Below are positions 1-24,296 of a DNA stretch of 64,000 nt, in pieces (positions within the stretch are counted from its first letter, which is position 1; the number at the start of each line of letters is the position of its first letter). This DNA comes from Escherichia phage vB_EcoM-E33. A model generated the notes under the pieces. The model was not told the origin of the DNA, made no database searches, and worked only from the letters and a program-made list of their open reading frames with translations. Where the stretch lies: sequence record OL780484.1; one strand, given 5' to 3'. A program made the position numbers and the translations under genes.

Positions 1-33
1 TTTACCCTGAAGACATCTGATTTAACAGGCGAA

Positions 34-510
34 ATGAAGGTCAAGATTAAGGATACCGTATTGTATTCCTTAAGCCAAGACCCGTCCCAAGATAAGAAAG
101 AAGTATTGACTCGGTGTGTCATTGCAACGTATGCCGAGTACATGGTTGCTGATTGGTTGAAAGGATATGTTAACAGTGGTCTGGAAGACCATGACGACCC
201 TTATACCTATGCATGGGATGTTTTAGCTCATCCTATGTATTGTGGACTACGTGTAGAGGTCAAGACCCATCAGTCGGATTCTAAGTGGATTTCCTGCACT
301 ACAGGATACTCCGGTGACTTCCCTTATGGAACAGGGATTAACCTGGGCCCGCTCTTGAATCATAAAGTTGCAGATTGTATAATTATATTCGACACTTCGG
401 TAAATGAGGCAGGCGATGTCCTGTTCACTCCTAAGTTCTCTGGTGACAGAGAAGCCATCACAAAGCTAGTCCGTAAGAGCAATTACAACGGCTGGTATCT
501 CGCCTTATAA
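34..510 (+). CDS. hypothetical protein, 158 aa, in the denB/ndd.x slot upstream of ndd
   Basis: ORF track; position only; no motif recognised. Confidence 0.5.
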   Translation: MKVKIKDTVLYSLSQDPSQDKKEVLTRCVIATYAEYMVADWLKGYVNSGLEDHDDPYTYAWDVLAHPMYCGLRVEVKTHQSDSKWISCTTGYSGDFPYGTGINLGPLLNHKVADCIIIFDTSVNEAGDVLFTPKFSGDREAITKLVRKSNYNGWYLAL

Positions 511-525
511 ATTTTTTAAATAAGT

Positions 526-555
526 GTTTACATACACCAAGGATGGTGTTACTAT
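526..555 (+). promoter_or_regulatory. T4-type early promoter (GTTTACA -35, 17 nt spacer, TACTAT -10), spacer has inverted repeat acacca/tggtgt
   Basis: motif read directly from sequence. Confidence 0.5.
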
Positions 556-583
556 CTTCCTATCAACTTGAGAGGAAAACAAA

Positions 584-841
584 ATGAAATTCTATTACGC
601 CAAACATAAAATTACCCGTGAGTTTGTATCGTTTTCAACCTTTTCAGATGAAGAAGACTTTTGCATCACTGGTCTGGATTTATCTAAATATGAAACCGAC
701 CAGCCTTATTTGACCACTCATGACGAGATTCAACGTTTGGTGAACGGTGAGCTAAATAATTCTTACTGCACTCAAATTTACCCTGCTTTGAAAAAAGCTA
801 TCAATGCTAATCAGATTGAAATCATTGAGGTGGAATTGTGA
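584..841 (+). CDS. hypothetical small protein, 85 aa; paralog of the next ORF
   Basis: ORF track; shares YYAKHK-T N-terminus and IEI-EV C-terminus with ORF 838..1104. Confidence 0.55.
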   Translation: MKFYYAKHKITREFVSFSTFSDEEDFCITGLDLSKYETDQPYLTTHDEIQRLVNGELNNSYCTQIYPALKKAINANQIEIIEVEL

Positions 842-1104
842 ATATCAAATTATATTACGCTAAACACAAAGTTACGGGTACGGTTGTTGCCGCCATGTAT
901 GACGCGTCAGGTGAAGGTGATGATGTTACTACAGAGTTATCTCTTTCTGATTGTAAATTTCTCCGTCCCTTAATCGCATCAAAGGAAGATTTAGAAAAGC
1001 TTATTGATGGAAAACTGGATAATGTTGACGGCATAGATATTCTTTATGACCTCCGCACGGCATTGTACAGGGGATTGATTGAGATAAAAGAGGTGGTGTT
1101 TTGA
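838..1104 (+). CDS. hypothetical small protein, 88 aa; paralog of the previous ORF
   Basis: ORF track; ATGA start/stop overlap with upstream ORF. Confidence 0.55.
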   Translation: MNIKLYYAKHKVTGTVVAAMYDASGEGDDVTTELSLSDCKFLRPLIASKEDLEKLIDGKLDNVDGIDILYDLRTALYRGLIEIKEVVF

Positions 1105-1194
1105 GTAGCAAAACGTGGTGCCTTATTTGGATGGCCTGTATCCCAGTGATTTGCGTGTGTTTTAGTTTATTGTTGTGGAAATTGGCATAAATCA

Positions 1195-1223
1195 GTATAC
1201 ATCTCCATTAATCATGATATTAT
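1195..1223 (+). promoter_or_regulatory. T4-type early promoter (GTATACA -35, TATTAT -10) followed by conserved TATAGACCTATCAACTAATGGAG initial transcribed region
   Basis: motif read from sequence. Confidence 0.45.
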
Positions 1224-1249
1224 AGACCTATCAACTAATGGAGATGATT

Positions 1250-1360
1250 ATGAAAAACTTACTTAAAGCAATTTGGAACATGTTTGTGTTGTTAATGGTA
1301 TTGAGCATTTTCCCAATCGTTTTTATGATTGACCATGTACGTGTATTCTTTAACTTCTGA
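1250..1360 (+). CDS. hydrophobic micro-protein, 36 aa
   Basis: ATG 9 nt after GGAG; sequence MKNLLKAIWNMFVLLMVLSIFPIVFMIDHVRVFFNF; below the ORF-track size cutoff. Confidence 0.3.
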   Translation: MKNLLKAIWNMFVLLMVLSIFPIVFMIDHVRVFFNF

Positions 1361-1370
1361 GGAAAATATT

Positions 1371-1583
1371 ATGAAACTTTTTAAAGATGTGGTAGTCGGC
1401 GAGAGCTTTGTATTGCATAATGGCCAACAACTGATTCGCATTTCTCCTTTGCAAGTTGGGACCGAATTACAACCTGTTAATGCTACAGACCTTTATGATT
1501 CAACTAAGCGTTTTTGTGTAGGCCCTAGTGTGCAATGCCTTACTGTTGATGAGTTGATGGCTATTTCTGTTGACGCTGAATAA
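1371..1583 (+). CDS. hypothetical protein, 70 aa
   Basis: ORF track, start moved to ATG preceded by GAGGAAAATATT RBS. Confidence 0.5.
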   Translation: MKLFKDVVVGESFVLHNGQQLIRISPLQVGTELQPVNATDLYDSTKRFCVGPSVQCLTVDELMAISVDAE

Positions 1584-1593
1584 GGAAAATATT

Positions 1594-1938
1594 ATGTCTA
1601 AATTATTTTTTGGTAATCGCAACATTATGTTCTTTGAGCAACTCAGTCTTAAAGAGGCATTGAAGGCCTTCAATCAAGAACTGGTTACTGGGCTAGATTC
1701 AAAAACTATGGCAAGTGCGGATTTCGTTTTCGTTCAAGACCCGGATACAGGTTTTTATCGATTCATCAAATTCCGTATGAGCATGGACCCTGACTATCGT
1801 AGTGCTTACTACGTGAGTTATGAAAACGTTATCAAAGAATTACGTGATACCTATGGACGCGCTTTGAACCCACTGAACAAGGTTTATAATGCTTCTTTTT
1901 ATACGAGCGGATTTATTTTAGAACAGCTACAAAAATAG
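1594..1938 (+). CDS. hypothetical protein, 114 aa
   Basis: ORF track, start moved to ATG preceded by AAGGAAAATATT RBS. Confidence 0.5.
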   Translation: MSKLFFGNRNIMFFEQLSLKEALKAFNQELVTGLDSKTMASADFVFVQDPDTGFYRFIKFRMSMDPDYRSAYYVSYENVIKELRDTYGRALNPLNKVYNASFYTSGFILEQLQK

Positions 1939-1966
1939 TTTACAACCTCGAGAATCATGTTATAAT
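1938..1966 (+). promoter_or_regulatory. T4-type early promoter upstream of ndd (GTTTACA, 16 nt spacer, TATAAT)
   Basis: motif read from sequence. Confidence 0.55.
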
Positions 1967-2015
1967 GGTTCTCGTTGACTGGATAACAAAACATTAATCT
2001 ACTGAGGAAATTGAT

Positions 2016-2465
2016 ATGAATACTTATATGACTCGCCGTAACGTTCTGTCTGCTGGTGCTACTACTGTTGCTTATGTTAAGAACGGTGAATACCAAAATG
2101 GCAAACCTTCTAAAGAAATCTCTGCTCAGCCAGGCTTCTACTTCTTTGTTAAAGGTGAAGCGGATTCTCGTGTCGTAGCTGCACGCTTTTATGTCGGTAA
2201 TCAACGTTCGGCTCAAGGTCTCGATGGTATCGTGGCTAACATTCGTAAGAAACGTTCTCAATCAGCCCGCACTATGGCAGTGAACGGTGTTGTGTATGAA
2301 GTTCTTTATGTACCAGCTTCTAAGATGAAACCTCTGACTACAGGTTTTGGTAAGGGTCAAATTGCAATGGCTTTCACTCGTAATCATAGTTCCGACCTCC
2401 AGACACTGGAAGAAATGAACCGTATGTTGGCTGATAACTTTAAATTCATCCTGCAGGCTTACTAA
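2016..2465 (+). CDS. ndd: Ndd nucleoid disruption protein
   Basis: 149 aa; strong remembered similarity to T4 Ndd, including the C-terminal [17 protein letters not shown] and [17 protein letters not shown]. Confidence 0.85.
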
Positions 2466-2542
2466 TGAGTAATTTCCATAACGAGCATGTGATGCAGTTC
2501 TATCGTAACAATCTTAAAACTAAAGGCGTCTTCGGACGCTAA
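2465..2542 (+). CDS. stp: Stp peptide (25 aa), activator of the host PrrC anticodon nuclease in T4
   Basis: translation [25 protein letters not shown] matches remembered T4 Stp; start overlaps ndd stop (TAATG). Confidence 0.8.
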
Positions 2543-2552
2543 TGAGGAAAAT

Positions 2553-2714
2553 ATGGTTATCCTAGTTTTTATTGAACTTATTATGGCTATAGTCTGTTCA
2601 GTTTGCTTCTTTTTAGGAGTGTGGGCCCCTGGTCCGATATTCTTAAGTTTTCTGCTTATTGGTTGGGTTCTTTCTACTTTTGTCGGTTTACTTAAGACGA
2701 TTAAAAATGATTAA
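2553..2714 (+). CDS. ac: small membrane protein, 53 aa, in the position of T4 ac
   Basis: hydrophobic 53-aa ORF after GAGGAAAATATGG; synteny stp-ac-52.1-52. Confidence 0.45.
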   Translation: MVILVFIELIMAIVCSVCFFLGVWAPGPIFLSFLLIGWVLSTFVGLLKTIKND

Positions 2715-2847
2715 TAAAATCCTGGGCTACTCGTTAGCCCTTGCTGCTTTATTAGTAGCGCTGTATTACGGAGTAATGTTCGGACTTATCCAAGTTGTGC
2801 TTTTTATTTCCGATGTTATTATGGCTATTCATTCACTAGTATGGTAA
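2707..2847 (+). CDS. small hydrophobic protein, 46 aa, in the position of T4 52.1
   Basis: internal ATG of ORF 2659..2847; size and position match T4 52.1. Confidence 0.4.
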   Translation: MINKILGYSLALAALLVALYYGVMFGLIQVVLFISDVIMAIHSLVW

Positions 2848-2851
2848 AATT

Positions 2852-4231
2852 ATGGCTGATGTAATTGATACCCTTTTTAAACAGGCTTTAGATGTTTACG
2901 ATGATTCTTTCACTCGTCGTGACTTAAAAAGTATTATCGACAACGAAGCATTGGCTTATGCAATGTATACTGTCGAAAACCGAGCCATTCCAAATATGAT
3001 TGATGGCTTTAAACCTGTACAACGTTTTGTAGTGGCTCGTTGTCTTGATATGGCTCGTGGTAATAAAGAAAAATTCCACAAACTGGCTTCTATCGCTGGT
3101 GGTGTAGCCGACCTCGGATATCACCACGGTGAAGGTTCTGCTCAGGAAGCAGGGGCTTTGATGGCTAACACATGGAACAACAACTATCCATTGTTAGACG
3201 GTCAAGGTAACTTCGGTTCTCGATTGGTTCAAAAGGCTGCAGCCTCTCGTTATATTTTTGCTCGTATCGGAAGTAACTTTGCAAAAGTTTATAAGGACAC
3301 AGAATATGCTCCGGTTCATGCGGATGTCGAACATAAGCCACCGGCTTTTTATCTGCCTATTATTCCTACTGTTCTTCTTAATGGCGTTTCCGGTATTGCA
3401 ACTGGTTATGCAACTAATATTCTTCCTCATAGTTTTGATTCTGTTAAGAAAGCTGTACTGCAAGTTCTTCAGGAAAAACGAGTAACCAAACCCAAAGTGG
3501 CTTATCCTGAATTCCGTGGTGAAGTTGTTGAGATTGAACCTGGTAGTTATGAGATTCGTGGAACGTATAAGTTCACATCTCGAACCCAAATGCATATCAC
3601 GGAAATCCCATACAAATACGACCGTGAAACATATGTGGCTAAGGTATTAGACCCTCTGGAAGACAAAGGGTATATCACATATGATGATGACTGTGACGAG
3701 AACGGTTTTGGCTTCAAGGTTAAGATTCGTAAAGAATACGAATTGCCTACTGATGAAAACAAGAAGCATGAAAAAATCATGAAGGACTTCGGGTTAATCG
3801 AACGTCGTTCACAAAACCTGACTGTCATTAATGAAAAAGGTAAACTTAAGGTTTACGAAGATGCAGTTGAACTGATTCGTGATTTCGTTGAGGTCCGTAA
3901 GACCTTTGTACAGAAACGTATTGATGGTAAAATCATCGAAACTGAAGAAGCTTTCAAACTGGCATTGGCTAAAGCCACATTTATCAAAGATGTTATTGAT
4001 GGTGTAGTGGTTATCCAAGGTAAGACCCGTAAGGTTTTAACCGAAGAATTGACCGGTAATAAAGTCTATGGCGAATATGCCGATAAACTAGTGGCCATGA
4101 ACATTTTCCATATCACTTCTGACGAAGCCAAGAAACTGGCCCTCGAAGCCAAGGCTAAGAAAGAAGAGCATCAATATTGGAAAACCACTGATGTTGTAAC
4201 TGAGTATGTTAAAGATTTGGAGGCTCTATGA
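2852..4231 (+). CDS. 52: DNA topoisomerase II medium subunit gp52
   Basis: 459 aa; long collinear similarity to remembered T4 gp52 (RDLKSIIDNEALAYAMYTVENRAIPNMIDGFKPVQRF). Confidence 0.9.
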   Translation: MADVIDTLFKQALDVYDDSFTRRDLKSIIDNEALAYAMYTVENRAIPNMIDGFKPVQRFVVARCLDMARGNKEKFHKLASIAGGVADLGYHHGEGSAQEAGALMANTWNNNYPLLDGQGNFGSRLVQKAAASRYIFARIGSNFAKVYKDTEYAPVHADVEHKPPAFYLPIIPTVLLNGVSGIATGYATNILPHSFDSVKKAVLQVLQEKRVTKPKVAYPEFRGEVVEIEPGSYEIRGTYKFTSRTQMHITEIPYKYDRETYVAKVLDPLEDKGYITYDDDCDENGFGFKVKIRKEYELPTDENKKHEKIMKDFGLIERRSQNLTVINEKGKLKVYEDAVELIRDFVEVRKTFVQKRIDGKIIETEEAFKLALAKATFIKDVIDGVVVIQGKTRKVLTEELTGNKVYGEYADKLVAMNIFHITSDEAKKLALEAKAKKEEHQYWKTTDVVTEYVKDLEAL

Positions 4232-4332
4232 GCCTTGGAGTCGAGTTCTTGTTACTCTGTATCTTTGCTGTTATCCTAGGCCTGGCGACAGGCTTAGCTA
4301 TAGGTTTAATAGCAGCCCACTTTAAAAAGTAA
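4228..4332 (+). CDS. hydrophobic micro-protein, 34 aa, overlapping the gp52 stop (ATGA)
   Basis: translation MSLGVEFLLLCIFAVILGLATGLAIGLIAAHFKK; directly followed by a terminator. Confidence 0.3.
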   Translation: MSLGVEFLLLCIFAVILGLATGLAIGLIAAHFKK

Positions 4333-4356
4333 GGAACCTTCGGGTTCCTTTTTTGG
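4332..4356 (+). terminator. intrinsic terminator, stem aggaacc/ggttcct with UUCG loop and T-run
   Basis: hairpin plus TTTTTT read from sequence. Confidence 0.6.
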
Positions 4357-4373
4357 GTTTAGTGCAAAAAAGT

Positions 4374-4403
4374 GTTTACATCTGCTTTAAACATGATACT
4401 ATA
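4374..4403 (+). promoter_or_regulatory. T4-type early promoter upstream of motA
   Basis: GTTTACA, spacer, GATACTATAG. Confidence 0.55.
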
Positions 4404-4440
4404 GACCTATCAAATAAATGAACTGAAACGGAGATACAAA

Positions 4441-5073
4441 ATGTCTAAAATTACTTATATCATCAAAGCTTCTGAAGACGTCCTGAATGAAAAAACTGCT
4501 TCGATCTTAGTACATATCATCAAGCATAACTTCATCACTTCAGGCGAAGTCCGTGAAGCCCTGAGTGAGCATTTTAGTGCTGCGGTAGTTAACTCTAACA
4601 TCGGTGTATTGATTAAGAAAGGATTCATCGAAAAATCTGGTGACGGTTTAGTGGCTACAGGTGAAGCAATGGACCTAGTTCAAAAAGCCGCCGACCTGTT
4701 CGCTTCTGAAAATGCTCCAGAGATGTTGGAAAAACGTAAAACACGTAGCTCACGTGGTGTTACTCCTGAAATGGTAACCATGGCCGATGAAGTTAAAGCT
4801 TTATTAGAAGATCGTATCGAGATTCGTGAAATTGCTGAAAACCGTAGCAACCTTGAAGTTCGATTCGCCAAACGTACCAATGGTATTCGTCAAATTGAAG
4901 TCCGTCGTGACGGAATGATGCGTATCTTCGGTTATAATATGACTGATAAAGAAAAACAAGTGTTTACTTCCTTGAATCTTGATGTTAAGATTAAGACTGG
5001 TGGTAAGAATACTTATATCGACTTCCAAAATGTATCATCTGAAGTTATCAAAACCGTAACCAACGCAATTTAA
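4441..5073 (+). CDS. motA: MotA middle-transcription activator
   Basis: 210 aa; N-terminus MSKITYIIKASEDVLNEKTASILVHI and NSNIGVLIKKGFIEKSGDGL match remembered T4 MotA. Confidence 0.9.
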   Translation: MSKITYIIKASEDVLNEKTASILVHIIKHNFITSGEVREALSEHFSAAVVNSNIGVLIKKGFIEKSGDGLVATGEAMDLVQKAADLFASENAPEMLEKRKTRSSRGVTPEMVTMADEVKALLEDRIEIREIAENRSNLEVRFAKRTNGIRQIEVRRDGMMRIFGYNMTDKEKQVFTSLNLDVKIKTGGKNTYIDFQNVSSEVIKTVTNAI

Positions 5074-5091
5074 CTGACTGAGGAAATTATT

Positions 5092-5421
5092 ATGAACAAG
5101 CTTAATATTGTTAATGAACTTCGTCGTTGTGCAGAACCTACTCAAGAAGGTTGGGACATTTGGTACCACGGTGCTTATCTCGGCACTATTGTTAAGATTA
5201 AAGCAGGTAAATACTTAATCATCCGTGGTGGTTCTGAAGCTTCTATGGGAATTCGCAAAAACTTTATGGCAGCAATCAGCACCTTTGTTCCGGCGGCCTA
5301 CGAAGTTTATAAAGCGGACTACAAAGAATACCAGGAATCACAGCCGGTTATTCGTTCAATTGGTGTTAATAAAGCTCAACAGAAAACTTTATGGCAACGT
5401 GTTAAAGGATGGTTCAAATGA
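5092..5421 (+). CDS. hypothetical protein, 109 aa
   Basis: ORF track; RBS GAGGAAATTATT. Confidence 0.5.
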   Translation: MNKLNIVNELRRCAEPTQEGWDIWYHGAYLGTIVKIKAGKYLIIRGGSEASMGIRKNFMAAISTFVPAAYEVYKADYKEYQESQPVIRSIGVNKAQQKTLWQRVKGWFK

Positions 5422-5756
5422 TTCCGATGGAACTTGACTGGGACGGCGAAGGCCATTCCCTTAAATTAATCGAAGAGCAGCGTAATGATTGGGACGAGCG
5501 TGTAGCTCTGGTAAACGGTATTAAGAAAATTTATCAACTCAATCTCCAGATTGATAACGTTCATCTTGAATTTGGTATGCAGTTATTACGATTTCTTGAG
5601 ATTATTTTTATTGAAAAGGTAAATATAACTTCGTATGGCGAGGGCCAAACAGTTGATATTAAATTATCATCCTATTATAAAGGTGATTTAATTGAAACTG
5701 CCACCAAAATTCAAGAATTTGCTAAAGATAATGGCCATAAGGTGATTTTCAAATGA
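5409..5756 (+). CDS. hypothetical protein, 115 aa
   Basis: ORF track; overlaps neighbours. Confidence 0.5.
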
Positions 5757-6241
5757 ACCCATTAAAAGGTAAAGAATTATCCTTTAAAGACCGTATGGCC
5801 TTGTTGGATAAAGCTCTTTCTCGCGAGACTCCTGAAAGTCTAGCAGCTAAATTACAGGCCTATGGTGATTACACCGAATATACAGAAGAGGATGTTTTAG
5901 AAGAGGTTCCTGAAATCTGTTGGCAAGTGGCCCATTGGTGTGAAGACCAAAAATTCCAGCGTCGAATTGTGTGTGCTGCAAACCGTTTTAAGTTAAAAGA
6001 TGGTGGAACTCTGGTTATTCCTGCGACACGTCATTACTCTAAAGATATGGGTGCGGTTATCAAGGCAGTTGAAGATAAATTGGTAACACGATTTGTCTGT
6101 GATGATGACCAAGGCTTTGTCGACCAATATGGTAATTATTGGACTCGTGAAGAAGCAATGATAATTGCAACATATGCTAATCAGGTTCGTATTGAACGTG
6201 GTGGTAGTGAAAAAGAACTTTACTCTGAGGACCTTTACTAA
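5753..6241 (+). CDS. hypothetical protein, 162 aa
   Basis: ORF track. Confidence 0.5.
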
Positions 6242-6522
6242 TGAATCTTAAACAACTTCAAATCGATGCAATCGAAACCCATATTAATCATGTTAAACGA
6301 CTGAATGTCATGCTGGAAGACAACTGGGGAACTTATGTCAACCAACCGGCTTGGGATGCTTTAGACCACGAATATATAAAGAATATTAGTTCTAAGACAA
6401 TCCACGGGAATATGGAAGGTTTGAAGCCGTTCCTACGTGATATGTATATTGCAACTAATAAAGAAATTATCAGCTCTCTTGAATATCAATTAAGGAAATT
6501 ACGTGAACAATCTGGTAGCTAA
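6241..6522 (+). CDS. hypothetical protein, 93 aa, in the arn/arn.x cluster position
   Basis: ORF track; size and position near asiA; Arn identity not verifiable from memory. Confidence 0.45.
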   Translation: MNLKQLQIDAIETHINHVKRLNVMLEDNWGTYVNQPAWDALDHEYIKNISSKTIHGNMEGLKPFLRDMYIATNKEIISSLEYQLRKLREQSGS

Positions 6523-6611
6523 GCACGATTTCAATAAGGCTTCTGTCCATAAGGACAAGAAGAAAAATCTTAAAGAGTCTAAACGTAAACAGAAACATAA
6601 GGGTAAAGGCT

Positions 6612-6770
6612 ATGAGTCATAACTTAGAGAATACCGTAACAGGCATGCGTACGCGTGAGCAGGAGTGCTTTGAGGAATTCCTGGGAGCTGATTTTAAGTT
6701 CCAGGAACCAATAGAAGAGATGTATCAGGAATATGTTAAAAAGAACGAAGAACATGTTTACAATCCCTAA
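6612..6770 (+). CDS. small acidic protein, 52 aa
   Basis: ATG after AAGGCT; below the ORF-track cutoff. Confidence 0.3.
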   Translation: MSHNLENTVTGMRTREQECFEEFLGADFKFQEPIEEMYQEYVKKNEEHVYNP

Positions 6771-6784
6771 GGATATGTTAGTAT
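6756..6784 (+). promoter_or_regulatory. T4-type early promoter upstream of asiA
   Basis: GTTTACA, 16 nt spacer, TAGTAT. Confidence 0.45.
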
Positions 6785-6825
6785 AGCCCTATCAGATAAT
6801 GACGTACTGAATTGAAGAGAATATT

Positions 6826-7101
6826 ATGACTAAAATTGAAATTGTTTCCGAAATTGCTACTATTGTTTCCATTTTGATTAAAACGGATTGTGAAGACATC
6901 ATGCAACGTCGTGATGAGTTTATTGCCTTTTTGAATGAGTTGGGTATTCGTAATGAACATGGAAAGGAACTTAATGGTTTGTCTTATAACAAATTATTTA
7001 AGTCATTAACTGAAGATGAACGTGACACTCTTATTGAGCAATTTAATGAAGGGTATGAAGATATACACCGTTACTTAATGATGTATACCTCCAATTTCTA
7101 A
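6826..7101 (+). CDS. asiA: AsiA anti-sigma70 factor
   Basis: 91 aa; similarity to remembered T4 AsiA (ASILIK, FIAFLNE-G, LI-EFNEG-E, YRYL-MYT). Confidence 0.85.
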   Translation: MTKIEIVSEIATIVSILIKTDCEDIMQRRDEFIAFLNELGIRNEHGKELNGLSYNKLFKSLTEDERDTLIEQFNEGYEDIHRYLMMYTSNF

Positions 7102-7751
7102 CGTGTTCGACCTAATGTCCTCCCAGCCTGACCGCACATAGACGAAAGTCTAGGAAATCCTAAATCCGGTTTGATATCATACCAGTACAACGATATCGAG
7201 CCGGCGTAGACGTTATCCAAATTAAAAAACGGGCACGAAAACATATACGTGAATTGTGTTTTCTTCTTTGTAGGAAGGAACACAGTTTCGGTACTTGATT
7301 CAAAATAGTTCCCGTTAACTCCCGCCATATATTCTACTGACGTTTTGTCAATTGGAAACCCTCCCGTGTTTTTTGCGTCTACCGTTTCCGGTAATTTACC
7401 CTCGTAAGCCACCATATCCACAAAATAATTCATGTTGGTCGGTCTAAAAGAATATATTGCTGTGAAGTCTGCGCCTGAAGAAGAATGCACTATTCGGAGC
7501 TGCTCGATAGCCGCAATTTTAAATCTATTGTCCTGGTCTTGTCTAATCATTTCAGTATAAGAGGCATAAGTAGTCTCTTTATAAAAGTTTAGAATATACT
7601 CGCCTTTATACCAAACCAATGCCATAAAGAACAATAATATTACGACTAGGACCCGGGAAAAAACTACTTTCCCGGAAGAAGTATCTTTAAAAATTCTATC
7701 AAGAAGTCCAAAAAGTAGGTCTGATAATGATATTCCTACTTTTGGTTCCAT
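7098..7751 (-). CDS. t: holin T
   Basis: 217 aa; collinear similarity to remembered T4 holin t (DLLFG-LDR-FKD, VVILLF-MA-VWY, YSFRP-N-NYFVD-AYEGKLP). Confidence 0.9.
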   Translation of the reverse strand: MEPKVGISLSDLLFGLLDRIFKDTSSGKVVFSRVLVVILLFFMALVWYKGEYILNFYKETTYASYTEMIRQDQDNRFKIAAIEQLRIVHSSSGADFTAIYSFRPTNMNYFVDMVAYEGKLPETVDAKNTGGFPIDKTSVEYMAGVNGNYFESSTETVFLPTKKKTQFTYMFSCPFFNLDNVYAGSISLYWYDIKPDLGFPRLSSMCGQAGRTLGRTR

Positions 7752-7769
7752 ACTTTTCTCCTTTAAAGA

Positions 7770-7777
7770 TATTTATA
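7770..7777 (-). promoter_or_regulatory. T4 late promoter TATAAATA for gene t
   Basis: plus-strand TATTTATA about 19 nt upstream of the t start codon. Confidence 0.6.
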
Positions 7778-7788
7778 GAGCTTATGCA

Positions 7789-8583
7789 CTATAGCCAGGA
7801 ACCGTAGATAACACCTGTATTATGCCAAGTAGGAGAACTTCCAGCAACAGCAGCTCCTGCGCCGCCGCCAGCGCCGACTTTTAGAACTTTACCACCATCA
7901 TTCCATGCGTTCTGGCCTGCGGCGCCAGCATCACCGCCATGACCTGAGTGGGCGTTACCATAATTGTATCCACCGCCAGGGCTTTCATAAGAAGCACCAC
8001 CGCCAGAGTATCCACCGCCGCCACCAGGGCCAAATGGACGTCCACCACCACCACCGATATCTTGCCAGTTAGCACCTGAGTGAGGACGATACGCAATGCC
8101 GCCACCGCCGCCGCCACCGCCACAGATAACCCCACCATTATTAATTCTTAAACGACCACCAATATCATTTACAATACAAGTTCCACCCCATTGGCCGTTG
8201 CCATCGCCACCCGAGTGGGTCCAACCACCTTGACCACCTCGGCCCCATATATGAACCCCACCACCAATATTCAATTGAACATATTCGTTTGGAGTATCCC
8301 CATACATAAAGAACAATGGAACATCACGGGTATAAGATACTAATGTACCTGTAAGATTAAACACAATAGGCGCACTACCAGCTTCAAAGCAACGGTCGCG
8401 GAACCACTGCCCATTAAAGTTATGGTCCCCACCTAAAGTATGAATAACTTCAACAGACCGGCCGTTCATATTACTCATCCAAAATGGGACACCCATTCTT
8501 AATCTTACAGCGGCTCCTGCCATCCAAGGGTCTCCTGTCTGCGCCCTTGCAGAAGTTCCTATCCACGGTCCTGCTACTGCCAT
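7789..8583 (-). CDS. 38: gp38 receptor-binding adhesin, T2-type with glycine-rich motifs
   Basis: 264 aa from the internal ATG preceded by GGAGG; poly-Gly blocks ([22 protein letters not shown]) separated by variable segments. Confidence 0.8.
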
Positions 8584-22222: not shown

Positions 22223-23905
<1,683 letters not shown>

Positions 23906-23966
23906 AAATTCAAATAATCTGTACTCTGTTTTTGGTTATTATGGTTGGGCTGAATTTGGTGCTATA

Positions 23967-24260
23967 ATGAGAGTTTGCAGAGTTGTTAACAAGTATAAAG
24001 AAGACTTTGATGTCAATATCCAACGTGGAACTATGTGGGGTAATCCATTTAAAGATGGAACCCGCGAGGAAAACATCAAGAACTTTAAAGAATACTTTAT
24101 TGCTAAAATAAAATCGGGCGAAATTAAAAGAGAACATCTTGAAACCCTTAGAGGTATGCGTATAGCGTGTACCTGTAAACCTAAGGACTGTCATGGGGAT
24201 GTGATAGCCCTGGTTGTTAACAAACTTTTCAAAGACACGTTCTCATTAGAAGACCTATAA
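23967..24260 (+). CDS. hypothetical protein, 97 aa, with a C-x-C-x5-C-x-G motif
   Basis: ORF track. Confidence 0.5.
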   Translation: MRVCRVVNKYKEDFDVNIQRGTMWGNPFKDGTREENIKNFKEYFIAKIKSGEIKREHLETLRGMRIACTCKPKDCHGDVIALVVNKLFKDTFSLEDL

Positions 24261-24269
24261 ATATCAGTC

Positions 24270-24296
24270 CATGCTTAACAGGTTCTATGATAGAAT
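24270..24296 (+). promoter_or_regulatory. possible MotA-type middle promoter upstream of nrdA (TGCTTAA then TAGAAT); a TATAAATA late-type motif also lies at 24256..24263
   Basis: motifs read from sequence. Confidence 0.35.

Follow-up and report, generated by a model that had tools for sequence, protein, structure and literature searches.

A probable membrane micro-protein gene at the gene 52 stop of a Dhakavirus, and the slot it occupies in T4-like phages

We analysed a window of 64,000 nucleotides (nt) from Escherichia phage vB_EcoM-E33 (OL780484.1), a Dhakavirus of the JS98/JS10/Bp7 group of T4-like coliphages. The subject is a micro open reading frame (ORF) of 34 amino acids (aa) at 4228-4332, located on the plus strand between the stop codon of gene 52 and a terminator. 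With high probability it is a real early Dhakavirus gene that codes for a single-pass micro-protein of the inner membrane, forms the last cistron of the ndd-stp-ac-52.1-52 unit and would be made in proportion to gp52. The substitution pattern among relatives indicates strong purifying selection on the frame, and the product is predicted to be one hydrophobic helix with an AxxxGxxxGxxxG face that is kept between two genera. Judged from their sequences, most of the T4-like lineages sampled carry a hydrophobic micro-ORF in the same slot, and these ORFs appear to be unrelated to each other.

No part of T-even genomes is less understood than the small hydrophobic proteins; T4 lists dozens of them, almost none with a function. 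The comparative evidence supports four micro-ORFs of the window (34, 36, 29 and 21 aa) as real genes, and the annotation should gain the 21-aa gene after td and the 29-aa orthologue of Ndd.6, which starts with TTG. The 34-aa protein is already known as a deposited hypothetical protein, and small hydrophobic T-even proteins are a long-known kind. What is new is modest: the unannotated 21-aa gene, the missed Ndd.6 orthologue, the slot pattern and a predicted coupling hairpin. The current understanding of phage biology is unchanged unless a function emerges for these peptides.

Coding evidence for the 34-aa frame

The ATG of the micro-ORF (4228-4230) overlaps the TGA of gene 52 (4229-4231) in the sequence ctATGAgc, where the two codons share TG. 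A Shine-Dalgarno sequence, GGAGG, is found at 4219-4223, within gene 52 and 4 nt 5' of the ATG. At the other end the TAA (4330-4332) overlaps the terminator stem by 2 nt, its AA being the first two bases of the stem. The terminator hairpin is kept in 20 aligned Dhakavirus sequences, which differ only by loop variants and one stem change, and in other genera analogous terminators abut the last stop codon. A preliminary description made from the letters of the window had proposed an ORF of this length with an ATGA overlap on the gp52 stop, ending at a strong terminator, and both the coordinates and the elements are as it gave them.

For the coding test we used 26 Dhakavirus sequences, which represent 16 haplotypes. 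The variable sites are distributed over codon positions 1, 2 and 3 as 5/0/17 (P = 3e-5), and the ratio of non-synonymous to synonymous polymorphism (pN/pS) is 0.06 in the frame, compared with 1.13 and 6.66 in the other two. Only five amino-acid changes occur (L3F, V15I, L23I, H31N and K34N), all of them conservative. In all the phage records matched by tblastn (54/54) the frame is intact, and it is present both where motA is the next gene and where an ORF of 71-75 aa is inserted before it. Outside the genus, homologues of 29-32 aa are found at the same overlap position in Gaprivervirus VR20, VR25 and VR26; the residues that are invariant between the two genera are M1, S2, E6, C11, A14, G18, I25 and G26.

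The preliminary description listed two further micro-ORFs, of 36 and 21 aa. Conservation of the reading frame, measured by synonymous against non-synonymous changes in relatives, is found for each: pN/pS is 0.06, 0.21 and 0.30 for the 34-, 21- and 36-aa ORFs, lower in every case than in the other two frames.

The frequency of such ORFs by chance was estimated by shuffling the sequence after the gp52 stop 1000 times and counting coupled ORFs of at least 23 aa with a grand average of hydropathy (GRAVY) of at least 1.2. These appeared in 4 of the 1000 shuffles. As a strand control, we compared the two strands of the gaps between long ORFs. The plus strand contains six micro-ORFs with GRAVY >1.3, five of which have a recognisable Shine-Dalgarno match; on the minus strand of the same gaps no micro-ORF exceeds 1.12.

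The predicted peptide and its database status

Residues 7-25 of the peptide are strongly hydrophobic, with a maximum mean Kyte-Doolittle value over 19 residues of 2.76, and T occupies codon position 2 in 53% of the codons. The summed Hessa scale for the peptide is -3.9 kcal/mol. AlphaFold2, run on the single sequence, gives one helix covering residues 3-32 with a mean predicted local distance difference test score (pLDDT) of 92. Hydropathy and structure prediction thus agree with a transmembrane helix, as expected for the single-pass membrane-type peptide that had been described.

The N-terminal flank, MSLGVE, has a net charge of -1, and the C-terminal flank ends in HFKK, with a charge of +2. 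According to the positive-inside rule, the peptide would insert in the inner membrane N-out/C-in, because the acidic E6 is near the N-terminus and HFKK is at the C-terminus. One side of the helix forms a small-xxx-small face, A14xxxG18xxxG22xxxG26. All four positions are kept in Gaprivervirus VR20 and VR25, while the residues between them vary; in VR26 position 22 is an alanine. Glycine zippers typically mediate helix-helix packing, and the face may promote self-association of the peptide or its docking on another membrane helix.

The protein matches phrog_16377 over its full length, residues 1-34 aligning to positions 1-34 of the 34 positions of the hidden Markov model (E = 2.3e-21). The exact sequence is present in NCBI nr and UniRef as a "hypothetical protein" of MX01, KIT01, vB_EcoM-E33 and others. 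GenBank entries of the family include YP_009324151.1 (MX01) and BBI57612.1 (KIT01), and none has a function; these are the same protein as the 34-aa product, with no difference. Of about 50 annotated Dhakavirus records 26 include the ORF; JS98, JS10, IME08 and Bp7 leave it unannotated, and in assemblies it is called beside the PF00521 topoisomerase gene. The suggestion that the three micro-ORFs fall below ORF-calling cut-offs is right for the 21-aa ORF, which is systematically missed, and wrong for the 34- and 36-aa ORFs, which have been called and deposited in many records.

Searches against other families gave little. In Pfam and NCBIfam the ORF has no match at E <= 1 except a sub-threshold hit to a transmembrane segment. 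The PHROG scan returned families of unknown function only, together with a non-significant holin hit for another ORF, and no similarity to Imm, Sp, rI or holin T; the Rfam scan gave nothing informative. Opposite the ORF there is no minus-strand ORF, no Rfam RNA and no strong promoter.

Proposed coupling to gene 52

The start of the micro-ORF is located in a predicted RNA hairpin (Table 1) with z = -3.8; none of 200 shuffled sequences is as stable (0/200). Four of the five Shine-Dalgarno bases are paired in it, as is the G of the AUG, and the UGA of gp52 lies within it. Because the Shine-Dalgarno sequence and the AUG would be buried in a structure of -17 kcal/mol, we infer that the predicted hairpin is a device for strict translational coupling to gp52. 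Translation of the micro-ORF would then depend mainly on ribosomes that terminate and reinitiate at the ATGA overlap: only those that have just completed gp52 would open the hairpin over the Shine-Dalgarno sequence and the AUG, and the amount of peptide would be in fixed proportion to gp52.

Comparable hairpins are predicted in Gaprivervirus (-11 kcal/mol), in Mosigvirus (-12.4) and at a Karamvirus-like locus that has no ORF (-13.3). In Mosigvirus a U-A to A-U swap was considered as a compensatory pair and rejected, as the register of the hairpin is shifted. Four Karamvirus-like loci (L021, L022, L024 and L044) have no micro-ORF, yet around the gp52 stop a hairpin of about -13 kcal/mol is present (GGAGGCUCUnUAAGAGCUUC), perhaps a relic or else a separate element of the mRNA 3' end.

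The arrangement resembles that between the MS2 coat and lysis/replicase genes and that of overlapping bacterial gene pairs, in which stop and start overlap and the downstream ribosome binding site is predicted to be closed by a hairpin. It differs in that the coupling of the 34-aa ORF is a prediction, and in that the hairpin is absent from the slots of T4 and the Klebsiella phages.

The three micro-ORFs had been presented as coupled to the ends of core genes. The 34-aa ORF (gp52) and the 21-aa ORF (td) do overlap the stop of such a gene; the 36-aa ORF is not coupled and has its own promoter-like site and GGAG. Coupling to core-gene ends does not define a class, because the 36-aa ORF is uncoupled and overlaps of the ATGA type are a general packing style of the genome. 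Among the same-strand junctions of the window 19 of 61 overlap by 4 nt (12) or by 1 nt (seven), and the start/stop overlap of the micro-ORFs is for this reason not special.

The slot between the gp52 stop and the terminator in T4-like phages

We surveyed the slot in 48 IMG/VR loci (numbered with the prefix L) together with several GenBank records; their gp52 identities range from 47% to 99%. Most lineages carry a hydrophobic ORF there, 23-77 aa long, whose start is no more than a few nt from the stop of gp52 (ATGA, TTGA or ATG-N4-TAG). Approximately 12 of the 19 lineage representatives have a coupled hydrophobic ORF. Eleven of these pass the criterion of the shuffling test and Mosigvirus misses it (GRAVY 1.19), while the expectation from shuffling is 0.2-9% per lineage. 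The stop of the slot ORF overlaps the terminator by 2 nt in Dhakavirus, Gaprivervirus VR25, Mosigvirus and the L006/L008 group, and is separated from it by 4-6 nt in T4, VR26 and L014. In the Karamvirus-like, Krischvirus-like and more distant loci no slot ORF was found, and the terminator follows directly at the gp52 stop.

By eye the slot ORFs form at least eight sequence families; hhalign was applied only to Dhakavirus/Gaprivervirus against T4/L006, giving a probability of 0.4%. The multi-genus DNA alignment of the slot shows homology between Dhakavirus and Gaprivervirus only. The L006, L008 and L017 genera have two slot ORFs in tandem: after a MotA.1-like ORF, a second hydrophobic micro-ORF (e.g. 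MTFYGLFVGMIFFLWIIYLVIEYFF; in L006 at approximately 4508-4585) follows by an ATGA overlap, and its stop enters the terminator stem.

In T4 the slot is occupied by MotA.1 (49 aa, P39512, phrog_3487), named "hypothetical predicted periplasmic protein". As in the window, its ATG overlaps the gp52 TGA as ATGA, the product is hydrophobic and rich in Gly and Ala, and a tetraloop hairpin terminator follows within a few nt, then an early promoter and motA. MotA.1 differs in having 49 instead of 34 residues and a PHROG of its own, and T4 has no hairpin that sequesters the ribosome binding site. That the 34-aa ORF is a diverged MotA.1 was considered and rejected: it has no match to phrog_3487, hhalign gives the 0.4% above and the DNA cannot be aligned. 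As the anatomy of the slot is the same without a sequence relationship, T4 MotA.1 is, on this comparison, a positional analogue of the 34-aa ORF and not a homologue, and "MotA.1" is better seen as a slot than as a family.

The transcripts of T4 motA.1, ndd.4, ndd.6, ac and 52.1 are classed as early, and mass spectrometry detected none of the five products (PMC9697503, Table S2). In a dCas13d knock-down (CRISPRi-ART), motA.1, ndd.4 and ndd.6 are "Not Fit" and gene 52 is "Fit" (PMC11879866, supplement); these counterparts are therefore dispensable in the laboratory, since their knock-down has no fitness defect (PMC11879866). A terminator is listed after motA.1 in a T4-like phage (PMC5931544). 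In the literature, a terminator table is the only place in a main text where we found "motA.1" mentioned, and we found no ribosome-profiling study of T4 small proteins. Some T4-like lineages have no slot ORF and the three T4 genes are "Not Fit", and for these reasons the peptide may be an accessory, host- or condition-specific factor and not part of the core replication machinery.

A more far-reaching view of the slot is quite improbable in our estimation. It holds that the gp52 stop is a site where unrelated membrane micro-proteins are repeatedly gained or born, made in proportion to gp52 by structure-enforced reinitiation in the clade of Dhakavirus, Gaprivervirus and Mosigvirus, and that they share a function tied to gp52 or are fast-evolving effectors of the host membrane. 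If this were true, the peptides might, for example, anchor or time the topoisomerase/replication complex at the membrane; alternatively, translation of gp52 would set the dosage of a host-membrane effector.

Alternative explanations

The ORF is short, T-rich sequence easily yields hydrophobic frames, and it is left out of about half of the annotated Dhakavirus records, all of which would be expected of a chance ORF without function in a 3' untranslated region. We find this hardly credible given the rarity of such ORFs in the shuffles (4/1000), the coding-like codon-position pattern and pN/pS, the intact frame in 54/54 tblastn records and the homologue in a second genus. A role in cis, where translation itself modulates termination and read-through into motA or protects the 3' end of the gene 52 mRNA, would account for the position of the stop, which overlaps the terminator stem by 2 nt in Dhakavirus, VR25, Mosigvirus and L006/L008 and is 4-6 nt off in T4, VR26 and L014; the 5' arm would thus be covered by a ribosome that stops there. 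It would also agree with the different peptide sequences of the genera. However, the pN/pS of 0.06 and the Gly/Ala positions that are invariant in two genera indicate selection on the amino-acid sequence and not merely on an open frame, every slot ORF is hydrophobic, a property that a mere spacer would not need, and lineages without a slot ORF terminate directly after gp52. As the explanation of the ORF this has a very low probability in our estimate; it is disfavoured as the sole role, yet it may add to the role of the peptide.

Two alternatives concern what the peptide does. Bacterial small membrane proteins and type I toxins (Hok, TisB, Ldr, Ibs and ShoB) resemble the 34-aa peptide in length (20-50 residues), in their single hydrophobic helix and in their short charged ends; the peptide differs from them in that Pfam and NCBIfam give no match and the opposite strand shows no evident antisense RNA gene or promoter. 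An exclusion or toxin-like effector would damage or remodel the host inner membrane or block a host membrane protein, resulting in superinfection exclusion, host shut-off or counter-defence, like type I toxins or single-gene lysis peptides. Small membrane-active peptides typically have this size, a single transmembrane helix, a charged C-terminus and a face of the glycine-zipper type. A place early in the operon and a slot that turns over from lineage to lineage fit genes for host interaction, and early exclusion proteins, Imm and Sp, do exist in T4 (PMC7677548). We nevertheless consider an effector rather unlikely, as the peptide is not related in sequence to known toxin, holin, Imm or Sp families, and the slot analogue motA.1 has no phenotype on knock-down in T4 (PMC11879866). 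The other proposal is a partner of the topoisomerase, binding gp52 or the gp39/52/60 complex and tethering or modulating it at the membrane. In all places inspected the 34-aa family and its positional analogues occur only at the gp52 stop, and coupling would fix the stoichiometry with gp52. On the other side, the slot peptides are unrelated and range from 23 to 77 aa whereas gp52 is conserved, several lineages with an intact gp52 have no slot ORF, knock-down is neutral for motA.1 and not for gene 52 (PMC11879866), and the end of an operon before a terminator is a permissive site for the gain of small genes. A partnership of this kind seems to us very unlikely.

An early gene for a membrane micro-protein coupled to gp52 thus appears as the best explanation of 4228-4332, and several observations weigh against it. 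The sequences are related by descent, and the codon-position statistics overstate the number of independent events. The T4 and Klebsiella-phage loci have no such hairpin, which means that hairpin-enforced coupling is not general. Within the hairpin the pair count consists of one-sided changes that preserve wobble pairing, with zero compensatory pairs, and since the arms lie in two coding sequences the conservation of the hairpin is inseparable from coding constraint. No informative family match that gives a function was obtained in PHROG, Pfam or NCBIfam, and phmmer over 1.84 billion representatives found only the cluster of the ORF itself. Finally, MotA.1 is not detected in the T4 proteome (Class_P = NA; PMC9697503), although tiny hydrophobic peptides are hard for mass spectrometry.

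Other small hydrophobic ORFs near ndd and gene 52

The first 4.4 kb of the window contain five small transmembrane ORFs, and the 34-aa ORF is one of this cluster, see Table 1. The 36-, 29- and 21-aa ORFs likewise belong to the small hydrophobic proteins, early or middle, of T-even phages; the 36-aa ORF corresponds to Ndd.4 and the 29-aa ORF to Ndd.6. For the 36- and 21-aa ORFs, the coordinates in the preliminary description are correct, as is the overlap of the latter with the td stop.

With its own GGAG at 1240-1243 and a promoter-like site at 1196-1223, the 36-aa ORF is the first of a small transcription unit and has no coupling to a core gene. An Ndd.1-like ORF follows it. In addition to the family and identity given in Table 1, it shares with T4 Ndd.4 the order relative to denB and ndd, and in JS98 and JS10 the protein is deposited as "Ndd.4 predicted inner membrane". 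The difference is in the start: the conserved one is an internal Met, giving 36 aa compared with the 40-42 aa annotated in JS98 and T4. Over four genera the pN/pS of the family is 0.30, vs 0.93 and 1.48 in the other frames.

The 29-aa ORF was not listed earlier. Its TTG start overlaps the TGA of the ORF at 838-1104 and is preceded by the Shine-Dalgarno sequence GAGGTGG; in 11 of 20 relatives the start is ATG. The pN/pS is 0.38, vs 1.05 and 1.99 in the other frames. It resembles T4 Ndd.6 in sequence (Table 1) and in its position after the denB-proximal ORFs, and differs from it by the TTG start. The ORF is absent from the protein collection searched and unannotated in this lineage. Upstream of it on the plus strand is a pair of neighbouring paralogues, each about 86 aa long, at 584-841 and 838-1104, with an overlap of the form GTGA; they begin with MKFYYAKHKIT and MNIKLYYAKHKVT, respectively.

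The 21-aa ORF after td

The 21-aa ORF is found by tblastn in 80 phage records of Dhakavirus and Gaprivervirus, with a pN/pS of 0.21 vs 0.56 and 1.84 in the other frames. No PHROG matches the peptide significantly, a collection of 15 billion proteins does not contain it, and the ORF is unannotated in every record inspected, including QL01 and VR26.

That it is a bridge which couples td to nrdA.1 was considered and rejected, as the ORF is kept without nrdA.1 and where it is separated from td. In VR20 and VR26 another ORF lies between td and the 21-aa ORF. L081, L052 and L075 (VR5, IME341 and VR25) lack nrdA.1; in them the MotA-box promoter sequence of nrdA, TGCTTAACAGGTTC, comes directly after the 21-aa ORF. 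In the window this sequence is located at 24272-24296, 5' of nrdA. Because it is retained in three different settings, the ORF is an independent gene and more than a bridge.

In QL01 (L152, NC_028847.1; 114-363) the annotated NrdA.1 has a 5' extension that crosses the 21-aa ORF and enters td. The extension is probably a mis-called start site, since the nrdA.1 frame of the window contains no ATG, GTG or TTG before 23967. The td gene itself is one uninterrupted ORF of 285 aa at 23048-23905; it is without the group I intron that T4 td carries.

Gene order and neighbouring features

LHE83, vB_EcoM_FB, WG01 and others are 92-96% identical to the window over bases 1-8000. The plus strand carries, in this order, denB, several small ORFs, ndd, stp, a pair of small hydrophobic ORFs, gene 52, the 34-aa micro-ORF, motA and genes of the arn region, which along the direction of transcription is the order of T4. 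The coordinates of the features are collected in Table 1.

Table 1. Coordinates of the features discussed, in positions of the window.
Feature	Position	Strand	Evidence or remark
Gene 52 (topoisomerase II medium subunit, 459 aa)	2852..4231	+	ORF list; PF00521 on product; gp52 / DNA topoisomerase II in relatives
Predicted RNA hairpin, 12 pairs, 3-nt loop UAU, -17 kcal/mol	4214..4242	+	RNA folding
34-aa micro-ORF, MSLGVEFLLLCIFAVILGLATGLAIGLIAAHFKK	4228..4332	+	Last cistron before terminator; phrog_16377, substitution pattern, hydropathy, AlphaFold2
Intrinsic terminator, AAGGAACC-ttcg-GGTTCCTT plus T-run	4331..4354	+	Overlaps micro-ORF stop by 2 nt
Early-promoter-like site for the motA unit	4375..4402	+	TTTACA, 16 nt spacer, TACTAT, with TG
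29-aa hydrophobic ORF, T4 Ndd.6 orthologue	1101..1190	+	tblastn 48% identity over 25 aa, E = 2e-6 (within the loci set)
36-aa hydrophobic ORF, T4 Ndd.4 orthologue	1250..1360	+	phrog_3098, E = 3.6e-21; 61% identity to T4 Ndd.4
53-aa transmembrane ORF in the slot of T4 ac	2553..2714	+	phrog_9347
46-aa transmembrane ORF, T4 52.1 orthologue	2707..2847	+	phrog_3595 / PF24129
21-aa hydrophobic ORF	23902..23967	+	ATGA overlap with td stop; TAATG overlap with nrdA.1 start

Gene 52 is the cistron upstream of the micro-ORF, and its TGA is inside the start region of the latter. A pattern search for MotA-box middle promoters found none just upstream of gene 52, while sites were found before td and nrdA; the timing of the unit therefore rests on early-promoter-like sites only. 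In L032 (vB_EcoM_005) the gp52 match stops at residue 392 and the frame ends about 40 nt 5' of the micro-ORF, which is likely a frameshift or an assembly error in that record.

The motA gene is at 4441-5073, 3' of the early-promoter-like site, and T4 is arranged alike. Several Dhakavirus loci (L131, L133, L135, L136, L139, L146 and L148) carry the hypothetical ORF of 71-75 aa between the micro-ORF terminator and motA. The carriers include JS10, dhabil, UP19, MN04 and Bp7; the window is without the insert.

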